Source: Pseudomonadota bacterium (GTDB lineage Bacteria; Pseudomonadota; Gammaproteobacteria; Burkholderiales; SG8-39). From it: a stretch of DNA of 64,000 nucleotides. Location of the stretch: assembly GCA_018241645.1 (NCBI GenBank), contig JAFEDL010000029.1, positions 36,389-100,388 of the forward strand. Reading direction: 5' to 3'. A program made the translations under genes and the position numbers. The notes under the pieces were generated by a model. It was not told the origin of the DNA, did not search any database, and saw only the letters and a program-made list of their open reading frames with translations. Positions within the stretch are counted from its first letter, which is position 1. Every line of letters starts with the position of its first letter. This document shows positions 14,156 through 60,104 of this stretch, one piece after another.

Positions 14156-14189
14156 AAGGTTTCGGCATTCGTGCGCGACTAACTGTCAC

Positions 14190-19097: not shown

Positions 19098-19182
19098 TTC
19101 CCGCGCAGCCGGGTTGATCCATGTCAACGGGCGGATCGCCCCGCGGCGCATCATTTGCCCGATTCGCGCCGGGAGCCCGAGC

Positions 19183-30676: not shown

Positions 30677-30704
30677 AATCTTCTCCGCCTGACCCATGAA
30701 TCGC

Positions 30705-31574
30705 TTAATGAACCGCCCCGCGAACGGTCTGCAATGCCTCGTTACTCAGCAGGATCACCTCGATTTCCTCGGTAATCTCCTCCTGCCGCAGCAGGTTGTA
30801 TTTCTGTTGCAGTCGGGCCGTCTTGTCCTGGATACGCTGCGTCGCTCCTTCGAGGTGCTGCAGACGACGGCGGTTTTCCGCCATCAGCGAACCGTAGAAC
30901 ACGTCGTGCATCTGCGCCCAGAGGTAGTGGTTGGCCAGTTGCGGAAAGAACGTCCCCGCCTCCAGGTTCAGCAACGGCGGACTAGAGAAACGCGGGGTCG
31001 CAGACCCGGTGCGAGGCACCGGCAATATGGGGCGGGAGGCAACCCCGGCTTCGCCGTCGCGATGAGCAAAGACGGTTACCGCAATCGGCCCGTCCCGCCC
31101 CGCCTCCGCCTGAAGTTCGGCGAGGGAATTCATCAGGCGGTGCAGAACCGGCTGCACTTCCTCGGCCACGCTGGGCCCATCCAGCGTGGCGACGATGCCG
31201 GGCTCCCGGGAAAGGTTCGAGGCCAGCCTGCGGCCTACTGCCACTACGCGGGGCGGCGGCGCGGCCGAGTGGCGTCTGTGCTCAAACACGGCATCCGCGA
31301 GCGATTTATTGAAATCACCGCAGAACCCCCTTTGCGAACCGATGGCGACAATGAGGTCGGAGTCCCCGGGGCGCGAGCGGTATCCGTATTCCGGATGATG
31401 GCCGAGGAAATCCTCCGCGGCCGCCTCGACGCCCGCCAGTACGCGGTGCTGGTGGACAAGGAAGCGGGCGATCTTGTGCGTCTCCATGAGCGAAATGTTC
31501 TTCATGGCGCCCATGATGCCGCCTATATCGTCGAGCACCCCGAGGTGCCGCCGAATCTGCGCGCGCGTGCTCAC
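30705..31574 (-). CDS. atpG: N-type F1Fo ATPase gamma subunit
   Basis: GTG start overlapping the atpA stop (GTGA). Begins [31 protein letters not shown] and ends [11 protein letters not shown], as gamma subunits do. Confidence 0.8.
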
Positions 31575-33037
31575 CCCGCACCCCCTTCCTTGAGCCACCC
31601 CGCGAGCGCCTCCAGCCACCGCTCGCGATCGGTGTCCAGGGTCAGAGCGCCCCGGGCGACGTGAGTCCCGATGCGCCGCACGCGCTCGGACAGCGCGCCT
31701 GGCGCGACGCCGTCGAACATGCCTTCGTTGTGGGCCATCATCCATGCGAGCTGGAATTCGATCGGCTCCGGCGCCAGGCGATCCTGCCTGAATATTTCGC
31801 GCAAAACGCGGCCGCGCCGGATCTTGGCCTCCATCGAGGCTTCCAGCTGCGAGCCGAAGCGGGTGAACACCTCGAGTTCCAGGAACTGGAGGTAATCGAG
31901 CTTCATGCTGCCGGCTTCCCGCTTGATGCGCGCGTGCTGCGCCTTTCCGCCGATCCTCGATACCGACTTGGTCACATCGATGGCCGGCAGGAAGCCGCCG
32001 GCGAACAGGCCCTGGTCCAGGTAGACCTGCCCGTCGGTAATCGAGATCAGGTTGGTCGGGATGTAGGCCGACATCTCGCCTTGCTCGGTCTCGACGATGG
32101 GCAGCGCAGTCATGCTGCCGCCGCCATGCATCGGACCCAGGTGGGTGGAGCGCTCGAGCAGGCGCGAATGAAGGTAGAAGATGTCCCCGGGATAGGCTTC
32201 GCGCCCCGGCGGGCGGCGCAGCAGAAGCGAGAGTTCGCGGTAGGCGCGGGCGTGGGTCGTCAGGTCGTCGTATACAATCAGCGCGTCCTTCCCCTGCCAC
32301 ATCCAGTGCTCGGCCGCCGCGCATCCGGCAAACGGCGCCAGATACTTGAGGCCCGGCATCGCCGTGGCTTCCGCGACAACCACCGTCGTATGGGCAAGCG
32401 CGCCGGATTCGCGCAGCACTTCAATGGCGTTGATCACGCTCGAGCGCTTCTGCCCGATCATCACGTAGATGCAATAGGCGTCCTTGCCGCGCTGGTTGAC
32501 CACCGCGTCGAGCGCAAGGGCGCTCTTGCCGACGCCGTTGTCGCCGATGATGAGTTGGCGCTGCCCCTTTCCGATCGGGACCAGGGTGTCGATGATCCGG
32601 TTCCCGGTATAGAGCGGGGTGTTGACGAAATCCCGCGCCACAATCGGCGGAGACAGCACGTCGAGATCGCGCCGCGCGCTGCACTCGGGCATCGCACCCC
32701 CGTCCAGCGGCACGCCGAGCGGATCGATGACGCGGCCGAGCAGGCCCTCCCCCACGCCGATCCCGAGACGCTCTCCCGAGCGGTAGGCCGGGGTTCCGGC
32801 ACTCAGCGCCGGGGTCTGGCGCAGGAGTATCGCCCCCAGGGATTTCTGTTCGAGATGAAATACCAGCGCCCTGCTGCCGTCTTCCAGTTCGAGGACCTCA
32901 TCCATGGCTGCCGAGGGAAGTCCGCCGATCCAGGCGATTCCGTCGCCGATCGACAGCACGCGACCCTGCTCGGTCATGCGCAACCCGAAGCGATATGCGC
33001 CGCCTGACCCTGTGAGACCGTCTTTAGAATCCGGCAT
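31571..33037 (-). CDS. atpA: N-type F1Fo ATPase alpha subunit
   Basis: Walker A GDNGVGKS, plus the [20 protein letters not shown] motif. Confidence 0.95.
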
Positions 33038-33773
33038 GGCGGTTCTCGGCGAAGAATTTCAATTCGTCCTGCAGGTTGCAGCGCAGTACCCAGGACCCGA
33101 TGCTGATGCGCAATCCGGCGACAAGGTCGGGGTCCGGGCCGAACTCGCACGCGACGGGTGTGCCTGCCACCCGACCCAGCGCCTCCGAGAGCGACGCCCG
33201 CTGCGGTTCCGCAATCGGGTAGCGGCTGGTAACCCTGATCCTCGCGTGCTCGTCCTTGAAGGCCGCCCGCAAGGATTGCAGGTCGGCGTCGCCGAGTTGC
33301 GGCAGGTCTTCGATCAGCAGGACCCGAATCTTCTCCTCCAGGTCCGGGGAGGCCAGCCGCGACAACAGGTTCGCAGCAAATCGCGCGCCCTCGGCCAAGG
33401 CGCCTTCCTCCATCTTGTGCCGCAGTTCCAGTATCCGGCGCTCCTCCAGCGCGCGCGCCCGCTCGCGCTCCTGCTCGAGCGAGGCGCGCAACGCATCCAT
33501 CAATCGAGCGCGTTCCGCCTCGACCTCCGACCCGAGCTTCACTTGCGCACGAGCCTTTTCCTCCTCCCACTCGGCCATGCGGCTTTCGTAATGCTGCTTG
33601 AGGGACAGCGCCGCCGCTTCCAGCGAGCGCGCATCCGCGAGCGTCTTCTCGATCGCCGCCTTGCGTTCCGCGATCGCGTTCGTCACCGGCTTGTAGAGAA
33701 GCCTTTGCAGCAGCCATACCAGCACCAGGAAGTTGACGACCTCCAGAGCGAAAGTGGTCCAGTCGAATTCCAT
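33024..33773 (-). CDS. atpF: N-type F1Fo ATPase b subunit (long form; no separate delta gene)
   Basis: One N-terminal TM segment, a long charged coiled coil, then a C-terminal extension. 249 aa. Confidence 0.8.
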
Positions 33774-33823
33774 GGCCTTTCCTTATCGCAGGGCCGGCAG
33801 GACGCCCGTTTCGGCTTGCGACC

Positions 33824-34093
33824 TCACGGCTTGATCAGGTATTCGAGCAACGGATTCCTGAACAGGATGATCAACACCACGACCAACACATAGATCGCAA
33901 GCGATTCGATCATCGCCAGGCCGATGAACAGCGTGCGCGAGATCGCCTTCTCCGCCTCGGGTTGTCGCGCCAGCGCATCGAGCGCCTGGCTGATCGCGCG
34001 CCCCATGGCTTGCGCCGGAAAGAACACGCCCAGAGCCACCGCAAGCGCGGCCGCGACGGTGGAAGCGGTTACAAAAAACGTCATATCGTTCAC
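33824..34093 (-). CDS. atpE: N-type F1Fo ATPase c subunit
   Basis: Hairpin with an ARQPE loop. Helix 2 reads GLAMIESLAIYVLVV (E-S-x3-Y). Confidence 0.9.
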   Translation of the reverse strand: MNDMTFFVTASTVAAALAVALGVFFPAQAMGRAISQALDALARQPEAEKAISRTLFIGLAMIESLAIYVLVVVLIILFRNPLLEYLIKP

Positions 34094-34096
34094 TTT

Positions 34097-34786
34097 TCAC
34101 TCCTTTTCCCGATGTTGCTTGAGGTGTTGCGACTGGATCGCTCCGGCGATGTAGATCAGTGCGAGCATGCCGAAGATGTAGGCCTGCACGACGGCCTCGA
34201 TGATGTGCAGCATCAAAACCGGCACGGGGGCCAGGAATCCCGCCACCAGCAGCACCAGCAGCGCCGCCATCTGCAGGCTGAAGATGTTCCCGAACAGGCG
34301 CACCGCCAGGGCCACGGTGCGCGAGATTTCGCTGATCAGGTGGAATGGCAGCAGGATCGGATTGGGTGCGAGGTAATGGCGCAGGTAGCTCTTCAGCCCG
34401 TTGGCGCGAATTCCGTACCAGTGGACCGAGAGGAACACCAGTATCGCAAGCGCCACAGTGAGCGAAAGATCGCCGGTGGGCGAGCGCACGCCGGGCAGCA
34501 CGCTGGCCAGGTTGGCGGCCAGGATGAATATCCACAGGGTGGCGACGAGCGGCATGACCCGCCGGTGCTCGGCGGGCAGCACCGCGCGAATGGCATCCTC
34601 GATCGCAGTCACAATGCCTTCGACTATCACCTGCCATGGGCCGGGGACGGCCCGCAGGCCCCGAGTCACCCCCCAAGCGGTCAGCGCCAGCCCGAGCATG
34701 ATCGCCCAGGTCACGACCACCGTATTGGTGACCGCGACGGGACCGATATGGAACACCTGCGTGATGAATGACAGGGAGGCAGCCAT
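34097..34786 (-). CDS. atpB: N-type F1Fo ATPase a subunit
   Basis: 229 aa, polytopic, with the conserved stator Arg region LAVRLFGNIFS. Confidence 0.9.
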   Translation of the reverse strand: MAASLSFITQVFHIGPVAVTNTVVVTWAIMLGLALTAWGVTRGLRAVPGPWQVIVEGIVTAIEDAIRAVLPAEHRRVMPLVATLWIFILAANLASVLPGVRSPTGDLSLTVALAILVFLSVHWYGIRANGLKSYLRHYLAPNPILLPFHLISEISRTVALAVRLFGNIFSLQMAALLVLLVAGFLAPVPVLMLHIIEAVVQAYIFGMLALIYIAGAIQSQHLKQHREKE

Positions 34787-34789
34787 GGG

Positions 34790-35073
34790 TCACTCCCGCA
34801 CAAAGAAATAGACGTTGATCGCGCCAACGACGACGCCGAGAAACAGCATGCTCAGCGTCCAGCGCATCGAGTAGCCTTCGAGCAGGCCGTCGATCCAGCG
34901 GCCCAGATAGGCCCCGCCGACCACGGGCAGCACGAACAACAGGCCGAGAACGCCTATGTGCGCGGACTGCGCGAGCAGCGTGGGCCGCTCCCGATCCGCC
35001 CGCCGCATCCGCTCGCTCTGCCTGTCGACCTGGCGCTCGAGTTCTTCCGGTCCGGAAATCGGCGGCGCCCGCT

Positions 35074-35077
<4 letters not shown>
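34790..35077 (-). CDS. atpQ: AtpQ (AtpZ/AtpI-like small membrane subunit of N-ATPase operons)
   Basis: GTG overlapping the atpC stop (GTGA). Two TM segments with the VGGAYLGRWIDGLL motif. Confidence 0.65.
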
Positions 35078-37252
<2,175 letters not shown>

Positions 37253-37311
37253 TTCGTCTTCCTGTCGGCTCGAATCATGTTTCTGCGCAAACTCTTCCGG
37301 CGAGGCCGTGG

Positions 37312-37800
37312 CTATTGCTTCATCCCCGCAGCGATCCGGCGATGCAGTTTTGCAAGTCCCCGGTTTTCCTCCGCGGCCTGCGCGTAGAGACGCACCAGAC
37401 TCTCGCATCGCTCCCAGAATCCTGTGCTGCCCAAGGTGTCCCGCGCGTTCGCCATACGATCGGATTGGGGTCTTGAAGCCCATTGATCATAGTGCTCGCC
37501 CATTCCGCGATGCCGTTCGGCGCTCTCTTCGGCTTCCTTCGCCTCCTTGTCGTACCAGACGGCCAGCGCCTCATGGTCCGCCGGTGAATTCGCCGTCGCG
37601 ATTCGTTGCTCGATCTGCTGCCGTCGCTGCATCGCCTCGGTGGCACACCCGCTCATTGCACCCGCCAGCAGCAGACAGAGAGCAATCCCTACGGATCGCC
37701 TCGCGTTCAACCGCCAGCGGACGGAAGCGACCTTTGCATCGGTCTCGGTTCGATTCGCGTTTCCAATTTCGTCCATTCCCGGCTCCTTTGCGTCGACCAA
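37312..37800 (-). CDS. Lipoprotein, paralog 3
   Basis: Lipobox AMSGC. IEQRIATANSPADHEALAVWYDKEA...AERHRGM ... CESLVRLYAQAAEENRGLAKLHRRIAAGMKQ. Confidence 0.55.
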   Translation of the reverse strand: MVDAKEPGMDEIGNANRTETDAKVASVRWRLNARRSVGIALCLLLAGAMSGCATEAMQRRQQIEQRIATANSPADHEALAVWYDKEAKEAEESAERHRGMGEHYDQWASRPQSDRMANARDTLGSTGFWERCESLVRLYAQAAEENRGLAKLHRRIAAGMKQ

Positions 37801-37812
37801 CTCCTGCGTAGA

Positions 37813-38262
37813 TCAGTGCCGTTCAAAAACAGCGCTGCCGCCATCGCCGAACACGAGCGTCGCATACGGCTGGGGCCGACCCTGCTCCATTCCGGGCGAG
37901 CCAACCACCATGCCCGGCACCGCCAGCCCCTTCGCCTTGGTCCTTTCGCGCAGCAGCCGCTTGATGTCCGTCGCCGGCACGTGGCCTTCGATCGTGTAAC
38001 CGGCCACGATGGCGGTGTGGCAGGAAGACAGTTCGTCTGGAACACCGAACCTGCGCTTGAGCGGCGCCATATCGGCTACGTCGTGCGTCTCGACGCGAAA
38101 GCCGCTTGCCTGAATGTGCTTTACCCATTCGCCGCAACAGCCGCAGGCCGGACTCTTGTATACCGTCACAATCGGCGGCGCCTGCTGCGCGCGCGCCGCG
38201 GGCAGTACGCCGAGCCCCAGCATCGCACTCGCCGCAAGCATGAAAGTCCGTCTCGTAGTCAT
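37813..38262 (-). CDS. copG: DUF411 / CopG-family periplasmic copper-binding protein
   Basis: Tat-like signal MTTRRTFML, a CGCCGEW cysteine motif and VPGMVVGSPGME. GGAGG RBS before ATG 38262. Confidence 0.8.
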   Translation of the reverse strand: MTTRRTFMLAASAMLGLGVLPAARAQQAPPIVTVYKSPACGCCGEWVKHIQASGFRVETHDVADMAPLKRRFGVPDELSSCHTAIVAGYTIEGHVPATDIKRLLRERTKAKGLAVPGMVVGSPGMEQGRPQPYATLVFGDGGSAVFERH

Positions 38263-38293
38263 GAATTCCTCCGGATGACGCTTCATCAAATAC

Positions 38294-39031
38294 TCACCCC
38301 AGCCGGCCCAGTGCCGGAACCGCGTCGAGCAGCCAGATCGCCAGGACCGACAGCTGCCCGGTAATCATCGCGGTACCCAATGCCACCAGGACCAGCCCGC
38401 CCCCCATTTGCAGCACTGCGCCCAGGCCCCGGAGTTTGCCTAGCCACTTGGCAGCCCGGTCCACGAACAGCGCGGCCAGCAGGAACGGCACGCCGAGGCC
38501 AAGGGCATACGCCGCGAGCAGGCCGATCCCGGTCGCGCTGGTACCCGCGGCGCCGACGGCAAGAATGGCACCGAGCACCGGTCCGATGCAGGGCGTCCAC
38601 CCGAAAGCGAACGCCACGCCGAGCACGAAGGCGGCGGTCGGGCTGCCGCCGCTGAGGTGCGGATGCAACCGCAGATCGCGCTGCAGCCACGGCACCCACC
38701 GCCATAACCCCAGCGTAAACAGCCCGAACGCAATCACGATCGCACCGGCTACCAGATTCGCCTCGTAGCGGTAGTGAAGGAACAATTGCCCGAGTGCGGT
38801 CGCGCTGGCGCCGAACGCCAGGAACACGATCGAAAAGCCCGCCACAAAAAACGTGCTCATGCCGAGCGCTGCAAGCCTTTCCGGCGCATGCAGATGCCTC
38901 TTCCCGTGGATGCCCCCTCCGGCGACATACGACACATAGGCGGGCACCAGCGGCAGCACGCACGGCGAAAGGAACGAGACGATCCCTGCCGCGAATGCGG
39001 CCAGCATTCCAATGGACGCGGCGTCGGTCAT
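38294..39031 (-). CDS. ccdA: CcdA/DsbD-family thiol-disulfide electron transporter (second copy)
   Basis: LSPCVLPLVPAY and GWTPCIGPVLG. ATGA overlap with the cusA stop. Confidence 0.85.
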   Translation of the reverse strand: MTDAASIGMLAAFAAGIVSFLSPCVLPLVPAYVSYVAGGGIHGKRHLHAPERLAALGMSTFFVAGFSIVFLAFGASATALGQLFLHYRYEANLVAGAIVIAFGLFTLGLWRWVPWLQRDLRLHPHLSGGSPTAAFVLGVAFAFGWTPCIGPVLGAILAVGAAGTSATGIGLLAAYALGLGVPFLLAALFVDRAAKWLGKLRGLGAVLQMGGGLVLVALGTAMITGQLSVLAIWLLDAVPALGRLG

Positions 39032-42000
39032 GGCCGATTCCTCCGCCGCGCGCGCTCAAGGCCGAACTCCTTGACCAGTCCGTAGATCGCGGGGATCACG
39101 ATCAGGGTCAGGAGGGTCGAGGAAATCATTCCGCCCACCATCGGCGCCGCAATGCGGCGCATCGTTTCGGATCCGGTGCCGCTGCCCCACATGATCGGGA
39201 GCAGGCCGGCCATGATGGCCACTACCGTCATCATTTTCGGCCGCACGCGATCCACCGCACCCTCCATCACCGCTTCGTACAGATCGGCGACGGTCGGCGT
39301 CTTGCCTTCGGTGGCGCGCTTTGCCCTGATGGCCTCCCAGGCGTGGTCGAGATAGATCAGCATCACCACCCCGGTCTCCGCAGCGACGCCGGCGAGCGCG
39401 ATGAAACCCACGGCCACCGCGACGCTTACGTTGTAGTCGAGCAGCCACATCAGCCAGACGCCGCCGACGAGCGAAAACGGCACCGAAAGCATGACGATCA
39501 GCGTTTCCGTCAGGCGTCGGAAGTTCAGGTACAGCAGCAGGAAGATGATCGTCAGGGTCAGCGGGACCACGATGACGAGCTTTTCCTTCGCCCGCTCCAT
39601 GTACTCGAACTGGCCGCTCCAGGTGGCATAGTAGCCAGGGGGAAACTGCACCTGTTCGCGCACCGCCTTTTGCGCGTCGGCCACGTAACCGCCGATGTCC
39701 CGATCGCGGATGTCCACGAAGATGTACGCGGCCAGCAGCGCGTTTTCGGTGCGTATGGCCGGGGGCGCCTGCGTCAGGCTGACGCGGGCGAGCTGTCCCA
39801 GAGGGATCATCGCGCCGTTCATGATCGGCACCAGGACCTGCGTGGAGATGCCCTGTGGATCCTGACGCAACTCGCGCGGATAGCGCACGATCACGCCGTA
39901 GCGCTCGAGACCTTCCACCGTGGTGGTCACCATTTCACCCCCTAGCGCCGTGCCGATGACCTCCTGCAGTTCGCCCACGCCCAGGCCATAACGCGCCAAG
40001 GCCAGCCGGTCGGGTTCGATGTCGAGGTAATACCCGCCCGTGACTCGCTCGGCATACGCGCTGGTGGTCCCGGGAACAGCCTTCACGACCGATTCGATTG
40101 TTTTGGCGAGTTTTTCGATCTCGGCCAGGCTTTTGCCGTAGACCTTGATTCCGATCGGGGTTCGGATGCCGGTCGCGAGCATGTCGATGCGGCCCTTGAT
40201 GGGCATCGTCCATGCGTTGGAGACCCCGGGAATCTGGACCGCCTTGTCCATCTCCGCGATCAGCTTGTCCACGGTCATGCCCGGGCGCCATTCGCTTTGC
40301 GGCTTGAGGTTGATGACGGTTTCGGACATCTCGAGCGGCGCGGGGTCGGTCGCAGTCCCGGCGCGGCCGGCTTTGCCGAAAACCGAGGCGACCTCGGGAA
40401 ACGTCTTGAGGATCTTGTCCTGGGTCTGCAACAGCTCACCGGCCTTGGTGACCGACATCGAGGGCAGCGAGGCCGGCATGTACAGCAGGGTTCCTTCGTT
40501 CAGCACCGGCATGAACTCGCTGCCCAGCCGCATTGCGGGGTAGGCCGACAGGCCCAACGCAAGGATGGCGGCGGCGATGGTGAGTTTCTTCCGGCGCATC
40601 ACCCCCTCGATCACTGGGCGGTAGATCCAGATCAGGAAGCGATTAACCGGGTTCTTCTTCTCCGGCATGATCCTGCCGCGTATGAACAGCAGCATCAGCA
40701 CCGGTACCAGCGTGATCGACAAGAGCGCCGCCCCCGCCATGGAAAACGTCTTGGTGTAGGCGAGCGGCTTGAACATCCTGCCTTCCTGCGCTTCGAGCGT
40801 GAACACCGGCAGGAACGAGACGGTGATGATCAGGAGGCTGAAGAACAGCGCGGGCCCCACTTCCCGGCAGGCGTCGATCACGATCGGCAGGCGCGGCGCG
40901 TCCGGCGGCGCCCGCTCCAGGTGCTTGTGCGCGTTCTCGATCATGACGATGGCCGCATCCACCATGGCGCCGATGGCGATGGCGATGCCCCCCAGGCTCA
41001 TGATGTTCGAGTTGAGCCCCATCCAGTGCATTGCGATCAGCGCCATGAGCACGCCGACCGGCAGCATGACGATCGCCACTAGGGCGCTGCGCGCATGCAT
41101 CAGGAACACGACGCACACCAGCGCAACGATCACGCTTTCCTCGATCAGGGTGCGCGTCAGGTTGCCGATCGCGCGGTGGATCAGGTCGGACCGGTCGTAC
41201 ACGGTCTGCAGCGACACGCCCTTGGGAAGTCCGGCGGAGATTTCCGCGAGCCTGGCTTTGACGTTGTGGATGACATCGAGCGCGTTCTGGCCGTAGCGTG
41301 CGACGACGATGCCGGCAACCACCTCCCCTTCGCCGTTCAGTTCCGTGATCCCGCGGCGCTCGTCCGGCCCGAGTTCGACTTTTGCCACGTCGCGGATCAG
41401 CACCGGCACGCCCTTGTCCGCCTTGACGACCAGATTCTCGATGTCGGTTACACCGCGCAGATAGCCCCGGCCGCGCACGACGAACTCGGTCTCCGCCAGT
41501 TCGATGACGCGGCCGCCCACGTCCCGGTTGCTCGCGCGAATCACTTCGGCGACCTTGTTCAGGGGGATTCCGTAGGCCTGCAGCTTGCGCGGCTCGACGA
41601 TCACCTGGTATTGCTTCACGAAGCCGCCCACGCTCGCCACTTCCGCCACGCCCTGCGCCTTGGTGAGTTGGTAGCGCACAAACCAGTCCTGAATGGTGCG
41701 CAACTCGGCGAGGGTGTGCTGAGCAGCGACCACGGCGTACTGGTACACCCAGCCGACCCCGGTGGCGTCCGGACCGAGGCTGGGGCGGACCCCTTGCGGC
41801 ATCTGTCCCGATGCGAAATTGAGATATTCCAGTACCCGCGTGCGCGCCCAGTAGATGTCGGTGCCGTCCTCGAAGATGACGTAGATGAAGGAGGCGCCGA
41901 ACACCGAGAGCCCCCGCACCACCTTCGATTTGGGCACCGCCAGCATGGCCGTGCTCAGCGGATAGGTGATCTGGTCCTCCACCACCTGCGGCGCCTGGCC

Positions 42001-42162
42001 CGGGTACTCGGTGTAGATGATCACCTGCACGTCCGACAGGTCCGGAATCGCATCCAGCGGCGTACGCATCACCGCATAGATCCCGGTTGCGACGATGAAA
42101 AGCGTGCCCAGAAGCACCAGAAACACGTTGCGGACCGACCAGGCGATGATGCGTTCGAGCAT
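39028..42162 (-). CDS. cusA: Heavy-metal efflux RND pump, CusA family
   Basis: 1044 aa. The N-terminus MLERIIAWSVRNVFLVLLGTLF and overall HME-RND architecture. Confidence 0.95.
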   Translation of the reverse strand: MLERIIAWSVRNVFLVLLGTLFIVATGIYAVMRTPLDAIPDLSDVQVIIYTEYPGQAPQVVEDQITYPLSTAMLAVPKSKVVRGLSVFGASFIYVIFEDGTDIYWARTRVLEYLNFASGQMPQGVRPSLGPDATGVGWVYQYAVVAAQHTLAELRTIQDWFVRYQLTKAQGVAEVASVGGFVKQYQVIVEPRKLQAYGIPLNKVAEVIRASNRDVGGRVIELAETEFVVRGRGYLRGVTDIENLVVKADKGVPVLIRDVAKVELGPDERRGITELNGEGEVVAGIVVARYGQNALDVIHNVKARLAEISAGLPKGVSLQTVYDRSDLIHRAIGNLTRTLIEESVIVALVCVVFLMHARSALVAIVMLPVGVLMALIAMHWMGLNSNIMSLGGIAIAIGAMVDAAIVMIENAHKHLERAPPDAPRLPIVIDACREVGPALFFSLLIITVSFLPVFTLEAQEGRMFKPLAYTKTFSMAGAALLSITLVPVLMLLFIRGRIMPEKKNPVNRFLIWIYRPVIEGVMRRKKLTIAAAILALGLSAYPAMRLGSEFMPVLNEGTLLYMPASLPSMSVTKAGELLQTQDKILKTFPEVASVFGKAGRAGTATDPAPLEMSETVINLKPQSEWRPGMTVDKLIAEMDKAVQIPGVSNAWTMPIKGRIDMLATGIRTPIGIKVYGKSLAEIEKLAKTIESVVKAVPGTTSAYAERVTGGYYLDIEPDRLALARYGLGVGELQEVIGTALGGEMVTTTVEGLERYGVIVRYPRELRQDPQGISTQVLVPIMNGAMIPLGQLARVSLTQAPPAIRTENALLAAYIFVDIRDRDIGGYVADAQKAVREQVQFPPGYYATWSGQFEYMERAKEKLVIVVPLTLTIIFLLLYLNFRRLTETLIVMLSVPFSLVGGVWLMWLLDYNVSVAVAVGFIALAGVAAETGVVMLIYLDHAWEAIRAKRATEGKTPTVADLYEAVMEGAVDRVRPKMMTVVAIMAGLLPIMWGSGTGSETMRRIAAPMVGGMISSTLLTLIVIPAIYGLVKEFGLERARRRNRP

Positions 42163-42163
42163 G

Positions 42164-43738
42164 TCAGTGCGCTCCGTGGCCGCCGGCTGAGGGTTGGATG
42201 CTCACGATCAGGAACTCCCCCTTGCCCGCATCGATGAATTCGAACGCAATCTTCTGGCCCGGTTTCAGCGCCCGAAGCAGTGCCGGATCCTTGACGCGGA
42301 ATTCCATGGACATGGCCGGCCATTTGAGGCTGGCGACCGGCCCGTGCGCAAGCGTGACGCTGCCGTTGGCGAGATCCAGTGCTTCGACACCGCCCTCGGC
42401 CCGGTGCACCGCCGACCCGCCTGCCGCTGCGCCGGCGTCGGCTTTGGCGCCGTGCGTGCCATGGCCAAATCCACCGAGCGCCGCCTTGAGATTGCTCTCT
42501 GCATCGATCAGGAAATTGGCGCTCACGACAACCGCTTCGCCCGCCTTTACGCCTTCCAGAACTTCGACGTAGCCATCGGCGCGCGACCCGAGTTTCACGG
42601 CGCGTGGGTCGAAGCGGCCGCCGCCGAGGTCGACGAGCACGACCTGACGCGTACCAGTGTCGAGCACCGCCGAATCCGGCACGGCCAGCACCTTCGCTTT
42701 GCCGCGGCTCGACGCGATCTCCACCCTCGCGTACATCGCGGGCTTGAGCAGGCCCTGCCCGTTGGCCAGTTCGATGCGGACCCTGGCGGTGCGGGTTTCC
42801 GGGGCCACCGTCGGGTAGATGAACGTGATCCTGCCGTTGAACTGCTTCTCCGGATATGCATCGACCTTGATGGCGGCCGCATCGCCGGGCCGCACCGTCG
42901 CGAGGTCCTGCTCGAACACGTCCGCCAGAACCCATACACTGGAGAGGTCGGCGATCTGGTACAGCACCTCCCCGGCCATGAAGCGTTTACCCTGGATGGA
43001 AGGCTTCTCGAGCACCACGCCGGTCGCGGACGAGCGCAGGGTGACGAATTGCCTCGCCTTGCCTTCCTGCTGCAACAGCTTCAGTTCGGCCTCCGAGATG
43101 TCCCAGTTGCGCAACCGCTGCAGCGCGCCCTCGACCAGTCGCTGCATGCCGGCCCGGACTTCCGGCCCGCCCTCGGCGACCGACTGCAGGCCTTTCCAGG
43201 CGATCAGGTATTCCTGCTGCGCCGTGATCAGGTCGGGGCTGTAGACATCCATCAGGGCGTCGCCCTTCCTGACCGCCTGGCCGGTCGTGTTGACGTATAG
43301 GCGCTCGATCCAGCCATCGAACCGGGGCGCCACCGTATGCAGGCGCCGCTCGTCGGCCTGCACGGTCGACACCGCCCTGACCGTGCGGGTCAGCTCACGC
43401 AGCGCGGCGGCTTCCGTCCTTACGCCCAGTTTTTGCACCTTTTCGACGCTGATCTTCACCGCCGCGCCATCCGACGCTGGCTCTTCGCCCTCGTACACCG
43501 GGGTGTAGTCCATGCCCATCGGGTCCTTTTTCGGCGCCGGCGAAGTGTCGGGCAGGCCCATCGGGTTGCGGTAGTAAAGAATCTTGCGCTCGGCCTTGAC
43601 CTCCGCCGCCGGCGGCGCTCCAACCTGTTCCCGAGCGGTGCCGGAGTGCGCCGGCTGGTTCGAACCCCACCAATAGCCCACACCGGAAGCCGCGGCTGCC
43701 ACGACGACCAGGGTAGCTGCGGTCGCTGTCCACTTCAT
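42164..43738 (-). CDS. cusB: Cu(I)/Ag(I) efflux periplasmic adaptor CusB with a C-terminal CusF-like domain (SilB-like)
   Basis: N-terminal Met motif YYRNPMGLPDTSPAPKKDPMGMDYTPV. The C-terminal 80 aa contain LAHGPVASLKWPAMSMEFRV. Confidence 0.9.
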   Translation of the reverse strand: MKWTATAATLVVVAAAASGVGYWWGSNQPAHSGTAREQVGAPPAAEVKAERKILYYRNPMGLPDTSPAPKKDPMGMDYTPVYEGEEPASDGAAVKISVEKVQKLGVRTEAAALRELTRTVRAVSTVQADERRLHTVAPRFDGWIERLYVNTTGQAVRKGDALMDVYSPDLITAQQEYLIAWKGLQSVAEGGPEVRAGMQRLVEGALQRLRNWDISEAELKLLQQEGKARQFVTLRSSATGVVLEKPSIQGKRFMAGEVLYQIADLSSVWVLADVFEQDLATVRPGDAAAIKVDAYPEKQFNGRITFIYPTVAPETRTARVRIELANGQGLLKPAMYARVEIASSRGKAKVLAVPDSAVLDTGTRQVVLVDLGGGRFDPRAVKLGSRADGYVEVLEGVKAGEAVVVSANFLIDAESNLKAALGGFGHGTHGAKADAGAAAGGSAVHRAEGGVEALDLANGSVTLAHGPVASLKWPAMSMEFRVKDPALLRALKPGQKIAFEFIDAGKGEFLIVSIQPSAGGHGAH

Positions 43739-43787
43739 AGTCTTCTCCAGATGCTTGGATGCCGTGCGTTTGGAAACAACGAGCCGA

Positions 43788-45122
43788 TCAAAGGCCGGAC
43801 TTGCCGGTCAGAAATTCCATCTCCGCGAGCGCCTTGTTGTAGCTCGAAAGCGCCGATGCGTGGCTGATCTCGTAATTGAGAACCGTCATCTGGCTGTCGA
43901 GCAGCGTGAGGAAATCGACCCGATTGACGCGGTAGGCGGCAAGCGACGATTCCACCGCGAGCCGCGCCTGAGGCAGGACGCCCGTCTCGTAAAGTCGCGC
44001 CGACTTCAGGCTCTGCTCGGCGTTGGCCGCCTGCTGACGCAGCCTCGAGACCAGCTCATTGCGCTGCGCCTCGTACATGTCCGATGCCTGATCGCGCATT
44101 GCGATCGCCTCCGCAACCCGGGGATCGCGCTTGGTCTCGCGCCAGACCGGCAGGTTGATCGCGACGGTAAAGCTCACCATATCGTCGCGGCGCATTCCTT
44201 CCAGCGTCCTGTCCCTCTGGCCGTAGGAAAGCTTGACGTCGAAATCCGGGTAGTAGTCCTTGCGCGCCAGGTCGAGGGTCCTTGCGCTGCGCTCGACCAG
44301 GCTCTTCAGCCCAAGGAGCTGCGGACGCTCCCTGAGGGCGGTTTCGAGCAGCGTATCCAGTTGCAGCGGCGCCTCCCTCAGGCGCAACGCGGCCGGCGCG
44401 GGCACGCCGGCCGAGGGTGCACGGCCGAGCACGCGCGTCAGTTCCGCCTCTATCGTCCGGCGTTCGCGCGCCAGCTTGATCAGTTCGTCCGTCATTCTCG
44501 ACAGCTGGGTCTGCGCCTTGAGCACGTCCGCCTGCGTTCCCTGGCCGACCCCGTATCGCGATTCGGAGATTTGCAGGAATTGCTCGAGCACCTGCCTGTT
44601 CCGTTCCACCACACGCGCCGACTCCACGCTCAGCGCGAGCTCGAAATACGCGACCTTCACGTCGCGCAGCACGCGGTTGACGGTTTCCTGGTAGGCATAG
44701 CCGATCGATTCGGCGTCCTTGGCGGCCACGTCCTGCCTCAGGTCGCGCTTGCCGGGGTAGGGAATCCTCTGCGACAGACCGAGCATTTTCATGGTCATGT
44801 CCTCGCGCCTGAAGGGTTGCGAGGCCAGCGGCGCGTTGATCACCCCGGCCTCGAGCATCGGGTCGTCGAGCGCCCCGGCCGGCAATACGCGCTGCTGCGC
44901 CGCCAAGCGCTCGTTCCCCGCAGCGCGGATTTCAGGGCTGTTGCGCGCAGCCTCGGAAAGGAGTTCCTGTAATTGCGCTTCGCGCGGGAACTCCGGTGCT
45001 GCGCTCACGCCGGCCGGCGTTGCCGCGAACAGTAGCACTCCGATCAGGGCGAACTTGAACCGATCTTCGTAACGGGTATGGCAATGGCTCATCTGGATCT
45101 CCCAAAAGAACTCGCGCCGCAA
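43788..45122 (-). CDS. cusC: Outer-membrane efflux factor (TolC family), CusC-like
   Basis: 444 aa with the two-repeat OEP architecture. The start may be a downstream Met. Confidence 0.85.
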   Translation of the reverse strand: MRREFFWEIQMSHCHTRYEDRFKFALIGVLLFAATPAGVSAAPEFPREAQLQELLSEAARNSPEIRAAGNERLAAQQRVLPAGALDDPMLEAGVINAPLASQPFRREDMTMKMLGLSQRIPYPGKRDLRQDVAAKDAESIGYAYQETVNRVLRDVKVAYFELALSVESARVVERNRQVLEQFLQISESRYGVGQGTQADVLKAQTQLSRMTDELIKLARERRTIEAELTRVLGRAPSAGVPAPAALRLREAPLQLDTLLETALRERPQLLGLKSLVERSARTLDLARKDYYPDFDVKLSYGQRDRTLEGMRRDDMVSFTVAINLPVWRETKRDPRVAEAIAMRDQASDMYEAQRNELVSRLRQQAANAEQSLKSARLYETGVLPQARLAVESSLAAYRVNRVDFLTLLDSQMTVLNYEISHASALSSYNKALAEMEFLTGKSGL

Positions 45123-45176
45123 TGTGCGCGCGAGCGGACAACGCGCGGCCGCAAGCCGGCCGCGCAGCCCGGGAGA

Positions 45177-45548
45177 TCAGACTTGGAAGGACTGGAGCAG
45201 GATGCGTCTTGGGGGACCGATCCCGAGCGCACGGTCCGAAATGTATGCGACGACGGCATACGGCACCGGATCGGGCTGCACCACGAGCGTCAGTATCGGC
45301 GCCGAAGGCATTGCGGGAACATCCATCGTCACCTTCTGCACTGCCTGCCGATCCGACAGGCAGTGCGCGAGGCAAGCCGCGCCGAACCCGGAATCGTGGC
45401 AGGGAGCGACTTCGGCCGCCGCCAGCACTGCGCGGTCCGGCGAGTTCTCGAGCCAGTCGCAAGCAGACAGGGCCATCACGCCTTGCGCGAACAGCATCAG
45501 CGCAAGCATGATCCGCGCGATCAGGAGGCGGTGTAGGCGGAAACCCAT
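45177..45548 (-). CDS. Small Cys/His-containing exported protein heading the cus array (DUF2946/CzcI-like?)
   Basis: N-terminal TM/signal segment, then SACDW, PCHDSGFGAACLAHC. The family is uncertain. The start may be Met14, given the promoter geometry. Confidence 0.4.
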   Translation of the reverse strand: MGFRLHRLLIARIMLALMLFAQGVMALSACDWLENSPDRAVLAAAEVAPCHDSGFGAACLAHCLSDRQAVQKVTMDVPAMPSAPILTLVVQPDPVPYAVVAYISDRALGIGPPRRILLQSFQV

Positions 45549-45554
45549 TTGGTA

Positions 45555-45595
45555 ATTCTAAGCATTCCGCCCGATGCGAGGTTGATTTAGATCAA
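45555..45595 (-). promoter_or_regulatory. Class II FNR/CRP-family-type promoter: perfect box TTGATTTAGATCAA plus -10 TAGAAT
   Basis: The box lies at 45582..45595 inside the 18-bp palindrome GGTTGATTTAGATCAACC. TAGAAT lies on the minus strand at 45560..45555, 21 nt from the box. Confidence 0.5.
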
Positions 45596-45768
45596 CCGGT
45601 GTGGGCATCAATGTCCATGAAAGACCTGTGGTTTTCCCGGAAAAGCACTGGGAGGCCGGGGCGTCCCGGACCGATCCGGGGCGATTGGATGGCCAAGCCG
45701 ACCGCTATGGGGCGCCTGGCCCAGAAGAAGGAAGAACCGTGCCTGCCAGGCGCGCTCCGGCCGTTGAA

Positions 45769-46035
45769 TCAATGACCCGGCTTGAGCGTGCCGTGCTCGG
45801 TGATGGTCTTCCAGATCGCATTGTTCTTCATCATCACCTTGCTGCCGTCCTTGGCTTCCATGACCTTGCCGTCCTTCATCTTCTCGCGCTTCCCGGCCGC
45901 GTCGATGTGCGCCATGGTTCCATCCTTGTCGACAAAGACCTTGCCGCCGTCCTTCAGTTCGATGGTTATCGGCTCGGCCGCAGATACCGCACCCGCAAAT
46001 GCGAGCGCAATGATCGAAAGTGTGAATTTACGCAT
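45769..46035 (-). CDS. copK: CopK-like periplasmic copper-binding protein, copy 1
   Basis: Signal peptide plus KDGGKVFVDKDGTMAHIDAAGKREKMKDGKVMEAKDGSKVMMKNNAIW, which resembles C. metallidurans CopK. Confidence 0.7.
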   Translation of the reverse strand: MRKFTLSIIALAFAGAVSAAEPITIELKDGGKVFVDKDGTMAHIDAAGKREKMKDGKVMEAKDGSKVMMKNNAIWKTITEHGTLKPGH

Positions 46036-46319
46036 GATTCGATTCCTTTAAGAGTGTGGTCACGAACTGGCGCGCCGCTGAGCTAAGACGACTCATCAGT
46101 TGCGCTCCGCGGCAACACCGGTGCAGAAAGCATGCCAACCGAACCACGCGAGGGCAATCCGTTCGTTGGGCGAGGCCTTACCCTCAAGTCGCTCCGGTCC
46201 CGTCTAATTATGGGCGCGACAAAATAGTGCGAAAAATATTCCACCGCACTCACATAGTGCATTCTGGCACGCAGTGAATTTGAGCATCTCGGCACAATCT
46301 CCGCAATGTCCGTTACCAT

Positions 46320-46359
46320 TTGATCCCAGTCAAAATACTTACGCCGAACAGCCGATAAT
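46320..46359 (+). promoter_or_regulatory. FNR-type box TTGATCCCAGTCAA (9/10) with -10 GATAAT, facing gene 46451
   Basis: Box at 46320..46333. GATAAT at 46354..46359, 20 nt downstream. Confidence 0.4.
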
Positions 46360-46450
46360 GTGGTGGCCGCGATAGCAGGACTGGTCTGCCGACAGAGGCT
46401 CGCGCCGTTCCGAATCCGGCATATATTTACAACCACGCAAGGACTCAACC

Positions 46451-46690
46451 ATGAAACTCAAAATTTTTGCAGCAGCAGCCGTCGCCGCCTCCCTCGCAAT
46501 GCCGGTACTCGCCCAGGACAAATCCGCCACGGAAGCGCCGAAAGCCGACGCACCGAAAGCGCAAGCGAAGTCCAAGGCAAAGCCGCATAGCCACATGAAA
46601 GAGAAGACCGGAATCGAGCCCTCCGATCAGGCGACCGGCGCGTCCAAGCCCGTGGACAAGACAAAGCACTCTCACCCGAAAGAGAAGTAA
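46451..46690 (+). CDS. Small secreted Lys/His-rich protein with a duplicated HSH motif
   Basis: Signal peptide ...PVLAQD, with KPHSHMKEK and TKHSHPKEK. AAGGA RBS. Confidence 0.5.
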   Translation: MKLKIFAAAAVAASLAMPVLAQDKSATEAPKADAPKAQAKSKAKPHSHMKEKTGIEPSDQATGASKPVDKTKHSHPKEK

Positions 46691-46730: not shown

Positions 46731-47105
46731 CTATTTGGCAGGCATGGGATGCAGCATCTGGTCGTGCTGCATCATCTGTTCCATCATCATCTGCATCATG
46801 TCCATGCGCTTTTCCATCATGGCGTGGTGCTTCATCATTTCGCCTTTCTTGCCGTCCATCGGCATGCCCCCCATCATCGGGCCACCCATGCCGCGCATGC
46901 CCTTCATGCCTTCCTGCATCAGCCTCTGGCGCACCTCGGGATCCGTCACGATGTGGATCGTGTCCATCTGCGCCTGCATGGCTTTCATCTTTTCCATGTC
47001 CATCGCCATCGCGGGCTTGTCGTGGACATGCTTGTCCTGCGCCCACGCGATGGGCGCGGACGCCGCGCAAACAATGACGGCCGCAATCAATAGCGAGTTC
47101 TTCAT
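46731..47105 (-). CDS. Periplasmic methionine-rich protein (putative Cu(I) binding)
   Basis: Signal peptide. 29 Met in 124 aa, with MxM, MMxxM and HH clusters. Confidence 0.7.
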   Translation of the reverse strand: MKNSLLIAAVIVCAASAPIAWAQDKHVHDKPAMAMDMEKMKAMQAQMDTIHIVTDPEVRQRLMQEGMKGMRGMGGPMMGGMPMDGKKGEMMKHHAMMEKRMDMMQMMMEQMMQHDQMLHPMPAK

Positions 47106-48951: not shown

Positions 48952-49218
48952 TCAGTGCCCCGGCTTCAGCGTGCCGTGCTCGGTGATCGTCTTCCAGACC
49001 GCATTGTTCTTCATCATCACCTTGCTGCCGTCCTTGGCTTCCATGACCTTGCCGTCCTTCATTCTCTCCCGCTTGCCGGCTGCGTCGATGTGCGCCATGG
49101 TTCCATCCTTGTCGATGAAGACCTTGCCGCCGTCTTTCAGTTCGATGGTTATCGGCTCGGCCGCAATTGCCGCGCCGGCAAAGGCAAGTAACAGAATCGG
49201 GAATGTAAATTTGCGCAT
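48952..49218 (-). CDS. copK: CopK-like periplasmic copper-binding protein, copy 2
   Basis: The mature region is nearly identical to copy 1 (EPITIELKDGGKVFIDKDGTMAHIDAAGKRERMKDGKVMEAKDGSKVMMKNNAVWKTITEHGTLKPGH). Confidence 0.7.
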   Translation of the reverse strand: MRKFTFPILLLAFAGAAIAAEPITIELKDGGKVFIDKDGTMAHIDAAGKRERMKDGKVMEAKDGSKVMMKNNAVWKTITEHGTLKPGH

Positions 49219-49257: not shown

Positions 49258-49298
49258 AGAATACAAATATGCGCGCCTGGAGAATTGATCCAGGTCAA
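49258..49298 (-). promoter_or_regulatory. FNR-type box TTGATCCAGGTCAA (9/10) with -10 TATTCT, facing copK copy 2
   Basis: Box at 49285..49298. Minus-strand TATTCT at 49263..49258, 21 nt from the box. Confidence 0.4.
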
Positions 49299-56882: not shown

Positions 56883-57347
56883 ATGAGCGAAGTCGGCGTC
56901 GTCCCCATGGAGGAGCTGAGGAAGCTCTCGGGCCTCGAACTCATGCACGGCCTGATCGCGGGCAAATACCCGCCGCCACCGATCATGCGCGCCCTCGATT
57001 TCACGCTGGACCGGGTGGAGCATGGGGTGGCCGTGTTCTCGGGCGACGCCAAATACGACCATTACAACCCGATCGGCAGCGTGCATGGCGGGTGGATCGC
57101 CACGCTGCTCGACTCGTGCATGGGCTGCGCGATGCACACGACGCTGAAACCCGGCCAGGGATACACCAGCCTCGAGATCAAGGTGAATTTCGTGCGCGCC
57201 GTGCTGGACACCACCGGGCGGGTGACTGCGGAAGGGCGCGTGCTCTATGCCGGCAGCCGCACCGGCACGGCCGAGGGCAAACTGCTGGACGCCAACGGCA
57301 AGCTGCTCGCGCATGGCACTACGACCTGCCTGATTTTCCCGATCTGA
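56883..57347 (+). CDS. PaaI-family hotdog-fold thioesterase
   Basis: NPIGSVHGGWIATLLDSCMGCA motif. Confidence 0.8.
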   Translation: MSEVGVVPMEELRKLSGLELMHGLIAGKYPPPPIMRALDFTLDRVEHGVAVFSGDAKYDHYNPIGSVHGGWIATLLDSCMGCAMHTTLKPGQGYTSLEIKVNFVRAVLDTTGRVTAEGRVLYAGSRTGTAEGKLLDANGKLLAHGTTTCLIFPI

Positions 57348-57736
57348 CCTGACCGGCCGGCGCCGGGCCGGACAGTTCGTCCAGGATCGGGCACTCCGGC
57401 CGGTGGTCGCCATGGCAATGCGCGGCCAGCCGCTCCAGCGTCGCCTTCATCGCGAGCATCTCGCGGATCTTCTCCTCGAGCTCCCCGATGTGCTCCAGCG
57501 CCAGCTTCTTCACCGTGGCGCTCGACCTGCGGCTGTTCTGCCACAGGCCCAGCAGTTCGCCGATCTGCCGGATCGAAAAGCCCAGCCCGCGCGCCTGGCG
57601 GATGAACCTGAGCAGGTGGACCTCGTTCTCCGAGTACGTGCGGTAGCCGGAATAGGAGCGCTTCGCCTTGGGGATCAGCCCGATCTCCTCGTAGTGCCGG
57701 ATCATCTTGGCCGATACCCCCGCGGCCGCGGCCGCG

Positions 57737-57759
<23 letters not shown>
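57319..57759 (-). CDS. cueR: Cu(I)-responsive MerR-family regulator CueR
   Basis: N-terminal [26 protein letters not shown], and a C-terminal metal loop [10 protein letters not shown]. Confidence 0.9.
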
Positions 57760-59962
<2,203 letters not shown>

Positions 59963-59989
59963 GGCAATCCTTTCGTTACCGGTTACGGT

Positions 59990-60027
59990 CCGGGGATGCT
60001 CGACCTTCCCACCGCAGGAAGGTCAAG
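59990..60027 (-). promoter_or_regulatory. CueR-type promoter/operator of copA
   Basis: The minus strand reads CTTGACCTTCCTGCGGTGGGAAGGTCGAGCAT. This gives -35 TTGACC and a 19-bp spacer holding the perfect dyad ACCTTCC-N7-GGAAGGT (60003..60023). Confidence 0.6.
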
Positions 60028-60039
60028 CGGCCGAACCCG

Positions 60040-60071
60040 CTTGACCTTCCCATGGGGGCAAGCTTCATCGT
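60040..60071 (+). promoter_or_regulatory. Second MerR-type promoter facing copZ
   Basis: CTTGACCTTCCCATGGGGGCAAGCTTCATCGT. This gives TTGACC, a 19-bp spacer with the CCCATGGG core palindrome and CTTG/CAAG arms, and -10 CATCGT. Confidence 0.45.
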
Positions 60072-60104
60072 GGCACCTCCGTTAACCGTCCCATGGAGGA
60101 CACC

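Follow-up and report, generated by a model that had tools for sequence, protein, structure and literature searches.

A predicted class II FNR-type promoter at the head of a cus copper-efflux array in an uncultured member of the Burkholderiales

The DNA analyzed here is a stretch of 64,000 nucleotides (nt), hereafter called the window, from contig JAFEDL010000029.1 (positions 36,389 to 100,388, forward strand) of the Pseudomonadota assembly GCA_018241645.1, which belongs to the Burkholderiales lineage SG8-39. The window carries an array of copper-efflux (cus) and N-type ATPase genes that is headed by a small open reading frame (ORF), and just upstream of this ORF lies an inverted repeat that matches the FNR consensus. 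We use “FNR-type” for a Crp/Fnr protein whose recognition helix has the E--SR motif and which does not carry Arg at the CRP R180 position. The explanation that we favor, and hold to be reasonably probable, is that the repeat is a class II activator site for an FNR-type protein, most likely the organism’s own Fnr/Anr orthologue encoded outside the window, and that activation from this site gives a leaderless cus transcript. The elements on which the argument turns are as follows.

45582 to 45595, no strand assigned: FNR-type box core TTGATTTAGATCAA, which reads TTGATCTAAATCAA in the orientation of the promoter
45560 to 45555, minus strand: -10 hexamer TAGAAT, 21 nt after the box core and 6 nt before the ATG
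45548 to 45546, minus strand: ATG of the small ORF and predicted start of the leaderless transcript, based on N-terminal conservation and an in-frame TAG upstream
45177 to 45548, minus strand: small ORF of 123 amino acids, with 85 homologues and an alignment, and without a Pfam or NCBIfam family

The inverted repeat TTGAT-N4-ATCAA is matched exactly at 45582..45595, and this is its sole exact copy in the window. By chance, 0.04 copies would be expected per window, and an exact box was present in 4 of 100 dinucleotide shuffles. The 14-base-pair (bp) core lies inside an 18-bp palindrome, GGTTGATTTAGATCAACC, at 45580..45597. Inspection of the sequence revealed no -35-like or TTGACA-like hexamer 16 to 18 nt before TAGAAT, and a promoter scan returned no consensus sigma-70 promoter at the cus head. 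Since the -35 element is absent, this promoter is predicted to need an activator. The A of the ATG (45548) is the seventh base after TAGAAT; if it is taken as +1, the box occupies -47 to -34 and is centered at -40.5. For the center to be at -41.5, transcription would have to start at 45547, and the start codon would then be truncated.

A preliminary description of this DNA had already recognized the exact FNR consensus and the minus-strand TAGAAT 21 nt downstream of it, and both the coordinates and the spacing are correct. It had also placed the center near -41.5 with a start at about 45548. The 21-nt spacing stands, but the center is at -40.5 when counted from the ATG. Its broader proposal of a class II FNR-family promoter heading the cus/N-ATPase array is supported by the comparative sequence evidence given below, whereas control by oxygen is something that we can only infer.

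The mRNA of the small ORF is most likely leaderless and begins at Met1, because a -10 hexamer lies 5 to 7 nt before the start codon, inspection of the 12 nt upstream of the ATG revealed no Shine-Dalgarno (GGAG-like) sequence, and conservation among homologues includes codons 1 to 13. In 16 of 19 distinct homologous loci, compared with 1 of 35 other window genes, a TANNNT hexamer (mostly TAGAAT) lies 5 to 7 nt ahead of the start codon. The proteins of these loci range from about 80% down to 41% identity to that of the window. In the alignment of residues 1 to 13, R7 is invariant, M1, A11, and R12 are each present in at least 90% of sequences, and the N-terminal Arg codons vary synonymously among loci. 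Furthermore, there is an in-frame TAG stop within TAGAAT, and so the ORF cannot begin further upstream. The preliminary description had left open whether the transcript is leaderless or the real start is Met14. The first option is favored, given that Met14 is not conserved, residues 1 to 13 are, and the adjacent -10 recurs at those 16 loci; Met14 was therefore rejected as the true start.

The small-ORF family comprises 85 proteins, mostly of exactly 123 amino acids, whose only sources are metagenomes and metagenome-assembled genomes (MAGs) of Burkholderiales. In every locus collected, the gene is found directly upstream of a cusC-like gene. The N terminus of its product forms a membrane helix or signal, with a possible lipobox (LSAC); three Cys residues are invariant, as is the C-terminal PPRRILLQSFQ. 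Pfam and NCBIfam returned nothing meaningful for the small ORF, even when all 39 aligned members were searched at E values up to 1, and an exact-protein look-up of the window small ORF returned no record. Likewise, a plasmid collection contained no match for 45100..46500 by blastn or for the small ORF by tblastn. In an AlphaFold model of the protein (mean predicted local distance difference test score of 59.8), only the N-terminal helix is confident. From the alignments and promoter sequences, this family of leaderless betaproteobacterial genes is well supported, and a small conserved Cys protein at cus heads appears worth study.

A recurrent pattern comes from related loci, which are denoted by L numbers and were gathered from genome and metagenome collections and by exact-protein look-up (a scan of metagenome contigs contributed only 6). 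About 11 further FNR-type boxes occur in the related cus loci, where the chance rate is about 1 per 100 kilobases (kb), and all are upstream of copper genes (copK, cusF, a His-rich protein gene, or the small ORF). When the 19 boxes from the window and related loci are taken together, TANNNT starts at an offset of 21 nt (8 times) or 22 nt (4 times), which amounts to 12 occurrences at 11 boxes. The remaining offsets between 0 and 49, counted on either side of the 19 boxes, together gave only 8. The distance from box to hexamer is 21 nt at the 45582 box, whose start position is a predicted one, and 21 or 22 nt at 10 other boxes. With a TANNNT background of 0.4% per position, the binomial tail for the 21/22 peak is 3.5e-17, a figure that is too optimistic because the loci are partly related. 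The peak is clear despite this kinship. The boxes of this group also show a bias toward TTGATC.

Conservation of the box can be seen against a diverged background. L003/L026 (assembly of L026, GCA_964599095.1) have the same array order of copK, small ORF, cusCBA, DsbD, DUF411, and N-ATPase genes, at 83 to 86% nucleotide identity. Their intergenic region between copK and the small ORF was left unaligned by blastn, yet it still has TTGATCTGCATCAA, 21 nt, TAATAT, 6 nt, and ATG. In a four-way alignment of such diverged intergenic regions, the two half-sites form the sole invariant block, and the N4 and flanking positions vary. In run X3, a strain variant has TTGATCTAAGTCAA as its box, a form used at other boxes; its spacing and -10 are kept, even though the DNA further upstream is entirely replaced.

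These promoters can be described as a set of modules. In module A, the box stands in place of the -35 of a leaderless promoter (window and L003). In module B (L002/L025 and L023/L024), the box is followed after 21 nt by a TAC(G/T)CT promoter (hexamer TACGCT or TACTCT) that lies some 37 nt ahead of the leaderless -10. Module C consists of a box, 22 nt, TAGACT or TAGCCT, 6 nt, and the ATG of a leaderless-looking cusF gene ahead of the small ORF, and was located by sequence inspection in two loci.

L015, 2647 to 2700: cusF box-promoter region
L016, 717 to 770: cusF box-promoter region

Module D has no box and carries instead a -35-like GTGAC(C/G) located 18 nt before TAGAAT, within the end of the cusF gene (L008, L011, L013, and L016). 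Because the box-less loci have GTGAC(C/G) at 18 nt and the window has no -35, the box appears to replace the -35 element.

In the mechanism that we infer, for regulator, signal, direction of control, and operon extent alike, an FNR-type dimer would bind about 40.5 bp upstream of the start, where it would stand in for the absent -35, and the bound dimer would recruit RNA polymerase to TAGAAT. Transcription would begin no more than two bases from the A of the ATG at 45548, and the leaderless mRNA would encode the 123-amino-acid membrane-anchored cysteine protein. Read-through would then extend to the genes for CusC, CusB(-CusF), CusA, the DsbD-like protein, and the DUF411 protein, and probably to the N-type ATPase genes. 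The logic would be anticipatory in that the oxygen signal itself would turn on efflux and periplasmic chaperones. Under anoxia, the more toxic Cu(I) is the prevailing form of copper, and multicopper oxidases, which need O2, cannot work. In Escherichia coli, the Cus system is most important in the absence of oxygen. The array in the window consists of the following genes.

45769 to 46035, minus strand: copK copy 1 (CopK in Pfam and NCBIfam), immediately upstream of the small ORF and on the same strand
43788 to 45122, minus strand: cusC-like outer-membrane factor (Pfam OEP)
42164 to 43738, minus strand: cusB-like membrane-fusion protein with a C-terminal CusF domain (Pfam HlyD_D23 and CusF_Ec)
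39028 to 42162, minus strand: cusA-like RND pump (Pfam ACR_tran)
38294 to 39031, minus strand: DsbD_TM protein (Pfam), overlapping or abutting cusA, same order in L026
37813 to 38289, minus strand: DUF411 protein (Pfam), after DsbD_TM, same order in L026
31571 to 37001, minus strand: N-type ATPase genes, from domain scans, collinear in L026

The first N-ATPase gene encodes the catalytic subunit (35481..37001) and is followed by those for epsilon, a, c, b/delta, and alpha. A scan of 30000..45700 detected no consensus sigma-70 promoter and 8 terminator-like sites (10.1 expected), a result that is compatible with a long operon without proving one.

The usual regulators of cus operons were not found. 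Among the approximately 75 window ORFs scanned, there is no response regulator or histidine kinase (Response_reg, HisKA). The sequence ATGACAANNTTGTCAT, which we take to be the CusR/CopR box consensus, gives three matches in the window at up to 3 mismatches. All of these lie away from the cus head, and a CusR-type box there was thus rejected. This agrees with the earlier statement that no CusRS/CopRS genes or box are present, although a MerR-type regulator does exist in the island. A CueR/MerR-type operator at the cus head was also rejected, because inspection revealed neither a -35 nor the 19- to 20-bp spacer architecture, and the MerR gene is 12 kb away. That MerR-family gene (57759..57319) overlaps the end of a gene for an HMA-domain P-type ATPase (59962..57737), and a divergent copZ-like HMA gene (60093..60317) lies beside the pair. 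By its gene content, 57319..60317 is a classical CueR/CupR-type module, and cytoplasmic copper sensing is predicted to be present in the island.

The box at the cus head has company in the window. Besides the exact copy, there are four boxes of the form TTGAT-N4-(G/T)TCAA. With at most one mismatch to the box, 5 sites are found compared to 0.63 expected, and none of 100 shuffles reaches 5; for TTGA-N6-TCAA, the count is 5 sites compared to 0.41 expected. Four of the five window boxes are intergenic, and three of those four have a GTCAA half-site. The additional intergenic boxes were located by pattern scan.

46320 to 46333, plus strand: second box TTGATCCCAGTCAA, then 20 nt and GATAAT (46354..46359)
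49285 to 49298, minus strand: third box, reading TTGACCTGGATCAA, then 21 nt and TATTCT (49263..49258)
19114 to 19127, plus strand: fourth box TTGATCCATGTCAA, then 21 nt and CATCAT (19149..19154)

The second box precedes the gene of a small secreted His/Lys-rich protein (46451..46690), whose homologue in L004/L027 is preceded by TTGATCCAGGTCAA, 21 nt, and TATTTT. The third precedes copK copy 2 (48952..49218), which is followed by DUF2933, methyltransferase, and membrane genes. The fourth precedes an OsmC-like gene (19183..19638) and a thiolase gene, and the OsmC gene of L020 is preceded by the same layout (TTGAGCGGGATCAA, 21 nt, CATCAT). We suggest that the cus-head box is part of a small regulon, in which these three further intergenic boxes would put copK2, the His-rich protein, and the OsmC-like gene under the same control.

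Some additional observations concern the same genes and boxes. A fifth FNR-like box, TTGATCCTGTTCAA at 9423..9436, lies in the 3' end of a thioredoxin-like gene, 93 nt before the second DsbD_TM gene (9529..10257). It has no convincing -10 at 21 to 22 nt and could be an internal promoter or a chance match. The two copK copies (45769..46035 and 48952..49218) are about 3 kb apart on the same strand and align to the sole copK of L026 with 78% and 83% nucleotide identity, respectively; an FNR-type box of its own at class II distance is present only at copK copy 2. The copK2 gene string ends with 46731..47105, which encodes a Met/His-rich periplasmic protein of 124 amino acids that has no Pfam family and probably binds Cu(I).

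Several points weigh against the favored explanation. With the start at the ATG, the box center of -40.5 is one base short of the textbook -41.5. In E. coli, the class II FNR promoters of narG, nirB, and dmsA have their boxes at -41.5, and that of yfiD is at -40.5. The operon head is box-less in most of the small-ORF family (L008 to L014, L017, and L022), and hence box control would be confined to some lineages. A terminator scan detected none between copK1 and the small ORF, so that read-through from copK1 upstream may occur. At the other end, the transcript is only proposed to read through, probably, as far as the N-ATPase genes. The stretch was found in DNA metagenome runs and in no RNA run. 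Finally, Anr, Dnr, and FixK-type proteins share this box, which means that sequence alone does not tell oxygen apart from nitric oxide (NO) or another signal.

This last point bears on the alternative that survives best, in which the geometry is the same but the box is read by a Dnr/NnrR-type (NO-responsive) or FixK-type paralogue encoded elsewhere, as part of a denitrification or microoxic cascade. The consensus sequences of Anr and Dnr are indistinguishable (PMC6588701), and DNR orthologues with a CTTGAT-N4-ATCAAG motif have been predicted in denitrifying Betaproteobacteria (PMC1274295). A reader of the Dnr/FixK type would also suit the GTCAA half-site seen in three of the four intergenic window boxes, and a link to copper handling is plausible, as denitrification uses copper enzymes. 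However, whereas the predicted DNR motif has a C before TTGAT, most of the boxes here have G, A, or T at that position. Moreover, genuine Fnr proteins of Herbaspirillum, another member of the Burkholderiales, activate through both TTGAT-N4-ATCAA and TTGAT-N4-GTCAA, including at the operon of the copper ATPase gene fixI (PMC3759049), and thus GTCAA half-sites are used by Fnr itself. No nir, nor, or nos genes were found in the window or the loci examined. We therefore view this alternative as unlikely, albeit deserving of attention.

A second alternative is that the box is read by the island’s own Crp/Fnr paralogue, under local control unrelated to oxygen. The relevant features are listed here.

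17473 to 18138, plus strand: Crp/Fnr-family gene, the only one in the window by domain scan, judged an unlikely regulator of the cus head
18159 to 18174, plus strand: palindrome TGTAACCCGGGTCACA, CRP/HcpR2-like candidate operator upstream of a YgaP-like gene (18237..18443)

This reading, which we consider doubtful, draws on the position of the gene as the only one of its family in the window and on its recognition helix, REVISR, which carries the E, S, and R of E--SR. Furthermore, an FNR-type box lies 1 kb downstream of the paralogue gene, before OsmC, in both the window and L020, and the L020 orthologue (81% identity) is about 5 to 10 kb from a cus operon. The signal would, with equal doubt, be copper, thiol, or sulfur stress sensed through the three invariant Cys residues of the paralogue (C50, C84, and C90), or a cyclic nucleotide made by the island’s cyclase, of which an orthologous membrane enzyme is encoded inside the L027 copper island.

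However, the same helix has an Arg at the CRP R180 position, and the protein is without the N-terminal Cys cluster of FNR. According to Rodionov et al. (PMC1274295), proteins with R180 have motifs with G in position 3 (TGTGA type), and those without it have T there (TTGA type), so that the paralogue is predicted to read G and not T at this position. The sequence TGT(G/A)ACC-N2-GGT(C/T)ACA is found next to the regulator gene in each of the four loci with the YgaP-like neighbor (the window, L020 at 10689, L021 at 6981, and L030 at 7001) and never occurs at the copper promoters of the loci examined. A -10-like hexamer follows this candidate operator after 22 nt in both loci checked (window and L020). 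The cus box, TTGATC-N3-ATCAA, does not match the operator that travels with the local regulator gene. The distribution of the two elements also disagrees: L020/L009 have the regulator and no box at the cus head, L026 has the box and no Crp/Fnr gene within 10 kb on either side, and other homologues of the paralogue occur in sulfur or thioredoxin contexts without copper genes. Because of the Arg at the R180 position and the distinct conserved motif beside its gene, the local paralogue is a poor candidate for the TTGAT boxes; it probably reads its own CRP-like operator instead. A second Crp-type gene in L020 (7958..8674) was judged not to be FNR-like, since its product has a canonical cyclic nucleotide monophosphate (cNMP) cassette and a CRP-like helix.

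The local paralogue resembles DNR, HcpR1, and HcpR2 in being without the FNR Cys cluster, its motif GTAAC/GTGAC-N4-GTCAC/GTTAC is near those of the HcpR2 and CRP types, and the R180-G3 rule fits it (PMC1274295). HcpR2 has a Pro at position 181 (PMC1274295), whereas the local paralogue has a Glu, and its neighbors are YgaP-like, DUF302, OsmC, and thioredoxin genes and not hcp.

A variant of this idea is that the boxes are read, in place of the housekeeping oxygen sensor, by a dedicated Crp/Fnr factor that senses copper or Cu(I)-related envelope stress, either via Cys ligands in the former cyclic-nucleotide pocket or via cNMP made by the membrane class III cyclase, an enzyme recurring in these copper islands. 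We give this similarly little credence. If true, it would represent an undescribed form of copper sensing, in which a cyclase, cNMP, a CRP-like factor, and class II leaderless promoters act in sequence and replace CusRS/CopRS in a clade of uncultured Burkholderiales.

The paralogue and its surroundings have further unusual features. Its subfamily is large (1787 matches at E values up to 1e-20), with C50, C84, C90, and Y97 invariant and H94 present in at least 90% of sequences. Y97 sits where the cyclic-nucleotide cassette of CRP has the phosphate-binding Arg. The closest solved structure is an uncharacterized protein, 3dv8, in which the three Cys are kept. Gene neighbors in the subfamily include YgaP-like, DUF302, OsmC, and thioredoxin genes, RND pumps, and TusA/DsrE-type sulfur genes. 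Its ligand may be a metal, an iron-sulfur cluster, or persulfide. The membrane-anchored class III nucleotide cyclase of the window (14109..15560) has a full-length orthologue of 46% identity in L027 (5366..6751), located between cusF and a copper ATPase gene in the copper island, and cyclase genes are found 2 to 7 kb from the Crp/Fnr paralogue in four of five contexts. Just upstream of the paralogue is a small Cys-rich ORF (17202..17417) with the motif GDCCVFCSYG, which is itself preceded by a YeeE-like sulfur-transport gene, DedA, the cyclase, a TehB-like methyltransferase, and a PQ-loop gene. Judged by its genes, this cluster looks like one for thiol, selenium, or tellurium stress. The window also has a gene for an extracytoplasmic function (ECF) sigma factor (4365..4940).

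The remaining alternatives have far less to recommend them. The palindrome, which is able to form a 7-bp hairpin, might bind a repressor or act as a roadblock, or it might be no more than an RNA hairpin or terminator at the end of the copK1 transcript, with the TAGAAT promoter being constitutive. Such a promoter would be in keeping with the leaderless TAGAAT that most relatives have without any box and with the small gene ahead of cusCBA in Cupriavidus metallidurans, which is expressed without metal (PMC10304878). We consider this very improbable. The box-less relatives have the -35-like GTGAC(C/G) at 18 nt and the window does not, meaning that the window promoter should need an activator, and the constant spacing of 21 or 22 nt to the -10 at eleven promoters is a signature of class II activation. 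The terminator or hairpin version was rejected because the hairpin lacks a U-tract, the region does not fold better than shuffled sequences (z = -1.27), and the terminator scan was empty there. Invariant half-sites with variable N4 and flanks across loci likewise point to a protein site rather than a stem. A chance palindrome without function is hardly credible: one exact box does appear in 4 of 100 shuffled windows, but recurrence, fixed geometry, and conservation in diverged and syntenic loci all argue against it.

Read as a class II FNR-type promoter, the cus head can be compared with known systems. Like the E. coli class II FNR promoters, it has a 14-bp TTGAT-N4-ATCAA element over the -35 position, a weak or absent -35, and 21 to 22 bp to the -10. 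It differs from them in its copper-efflux target, its predicted leaderless transcript, and its TTGATC bias. The hemN-fixIS and fixNOP genes of Herbaspirillum seropedicae (ccoGHIS/fixGHIS elsewhere) likewise combine a Burkholderiales host, perfect and GTCAA-variant boxes, and a copper P-type ATPase target, fixI (PMC3759049). Those boxes are 128 to 143 nt before the start codons, and the copper transporter serves the cbb3 oxidase (PMC3759049), whereas here the genes are of the resistance type (Cus RND pump, CopK, and CusF) and the box abuts the start codon. This FNR control of a copper ATPase for cbb3 oxidase assembly is the nearest precedent.

The E. coli cusCFBA operon encodes the same type of pump, and the importance of Cus without oxygen provides a physiological rationale for the arrangement proposed here (PMC10100754). 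In E. coli, however, a divergently encoded two-component system, CusRS, senses periplasmic copper (PMC10100754), whereas the window has an FNR-type site, and neither such genes nor a CusR-like box was found. The cusDCBAF operon of C. metallidurans also has a gene for a small envelope protein before cusCBA and no adjacent two-component system (PMC10304878). The product of that gene, CusD, which is expressed without added metal, is described as a Met-rich lipoprotein of the twin-arginine translocation (TAT) pathway; the small ORF of the window is by contrast Cys-based, and no FNR box is reported for C. metallidurans (PMC10304878).

The N-ATPase genes invite a separate remark. Their operon is directly behind cusCBA, DsbD_TM, and DUF411, and this arrangement is conserved in a second MAG (L026, 18218..20372). 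At the N terminus of the catalytic-subunit ORF (35481..37001) is a YHS domain, otherwise found in copper-related proteins, with a bit score of 29.6, just below the Pfam curated cut-off of 30.3. Two overlapping paralogous small lipoprotein-like ORFs occupy 37007..37800, between the DUF411 and ATPase genes (L026 has one, of 136 amino acids), and a third paralogue is found after the ATPase genes at about 30287..30610. We found no literature that links N-ATPases to copper.

Cus-type efflux is usually described as copper-induced via two-component systems, with oxygen acting indirectly through copper speciation. Our literature search, whose coverage was incomplete, returned no precedent for direct FNR-family control of cus or copper resistance, and novelty is unproven. 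The mechanism itself would be that of a standard class II FNR promoter; what appears new is the target, the leaderless layout, and the exchange of the -35 for a box among relatives. The advance would thus lie in the content and evolution of a regulon and not in the kind of mechanism, which is textbook. The cus, copK, and cusF genes of environmental Burkholderiales appear to be wired directly to an FNR-type activator, and the same leaderless -10 is paired with a -35-like element in some lineages and with the box in others. Copper export in this group of uncultured Burkholderiales is probably tied to low oxygen or a related signal and not to the usual copper two-component system. If this is true, it would be a clear case of anticipatory regulation, in which the cells are made ready for Cu(I) once oxygen falls. 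It would also illustrate how a promoter can be rewired by the swap of one module, by which copper resistance joins the FNR-type regulons.

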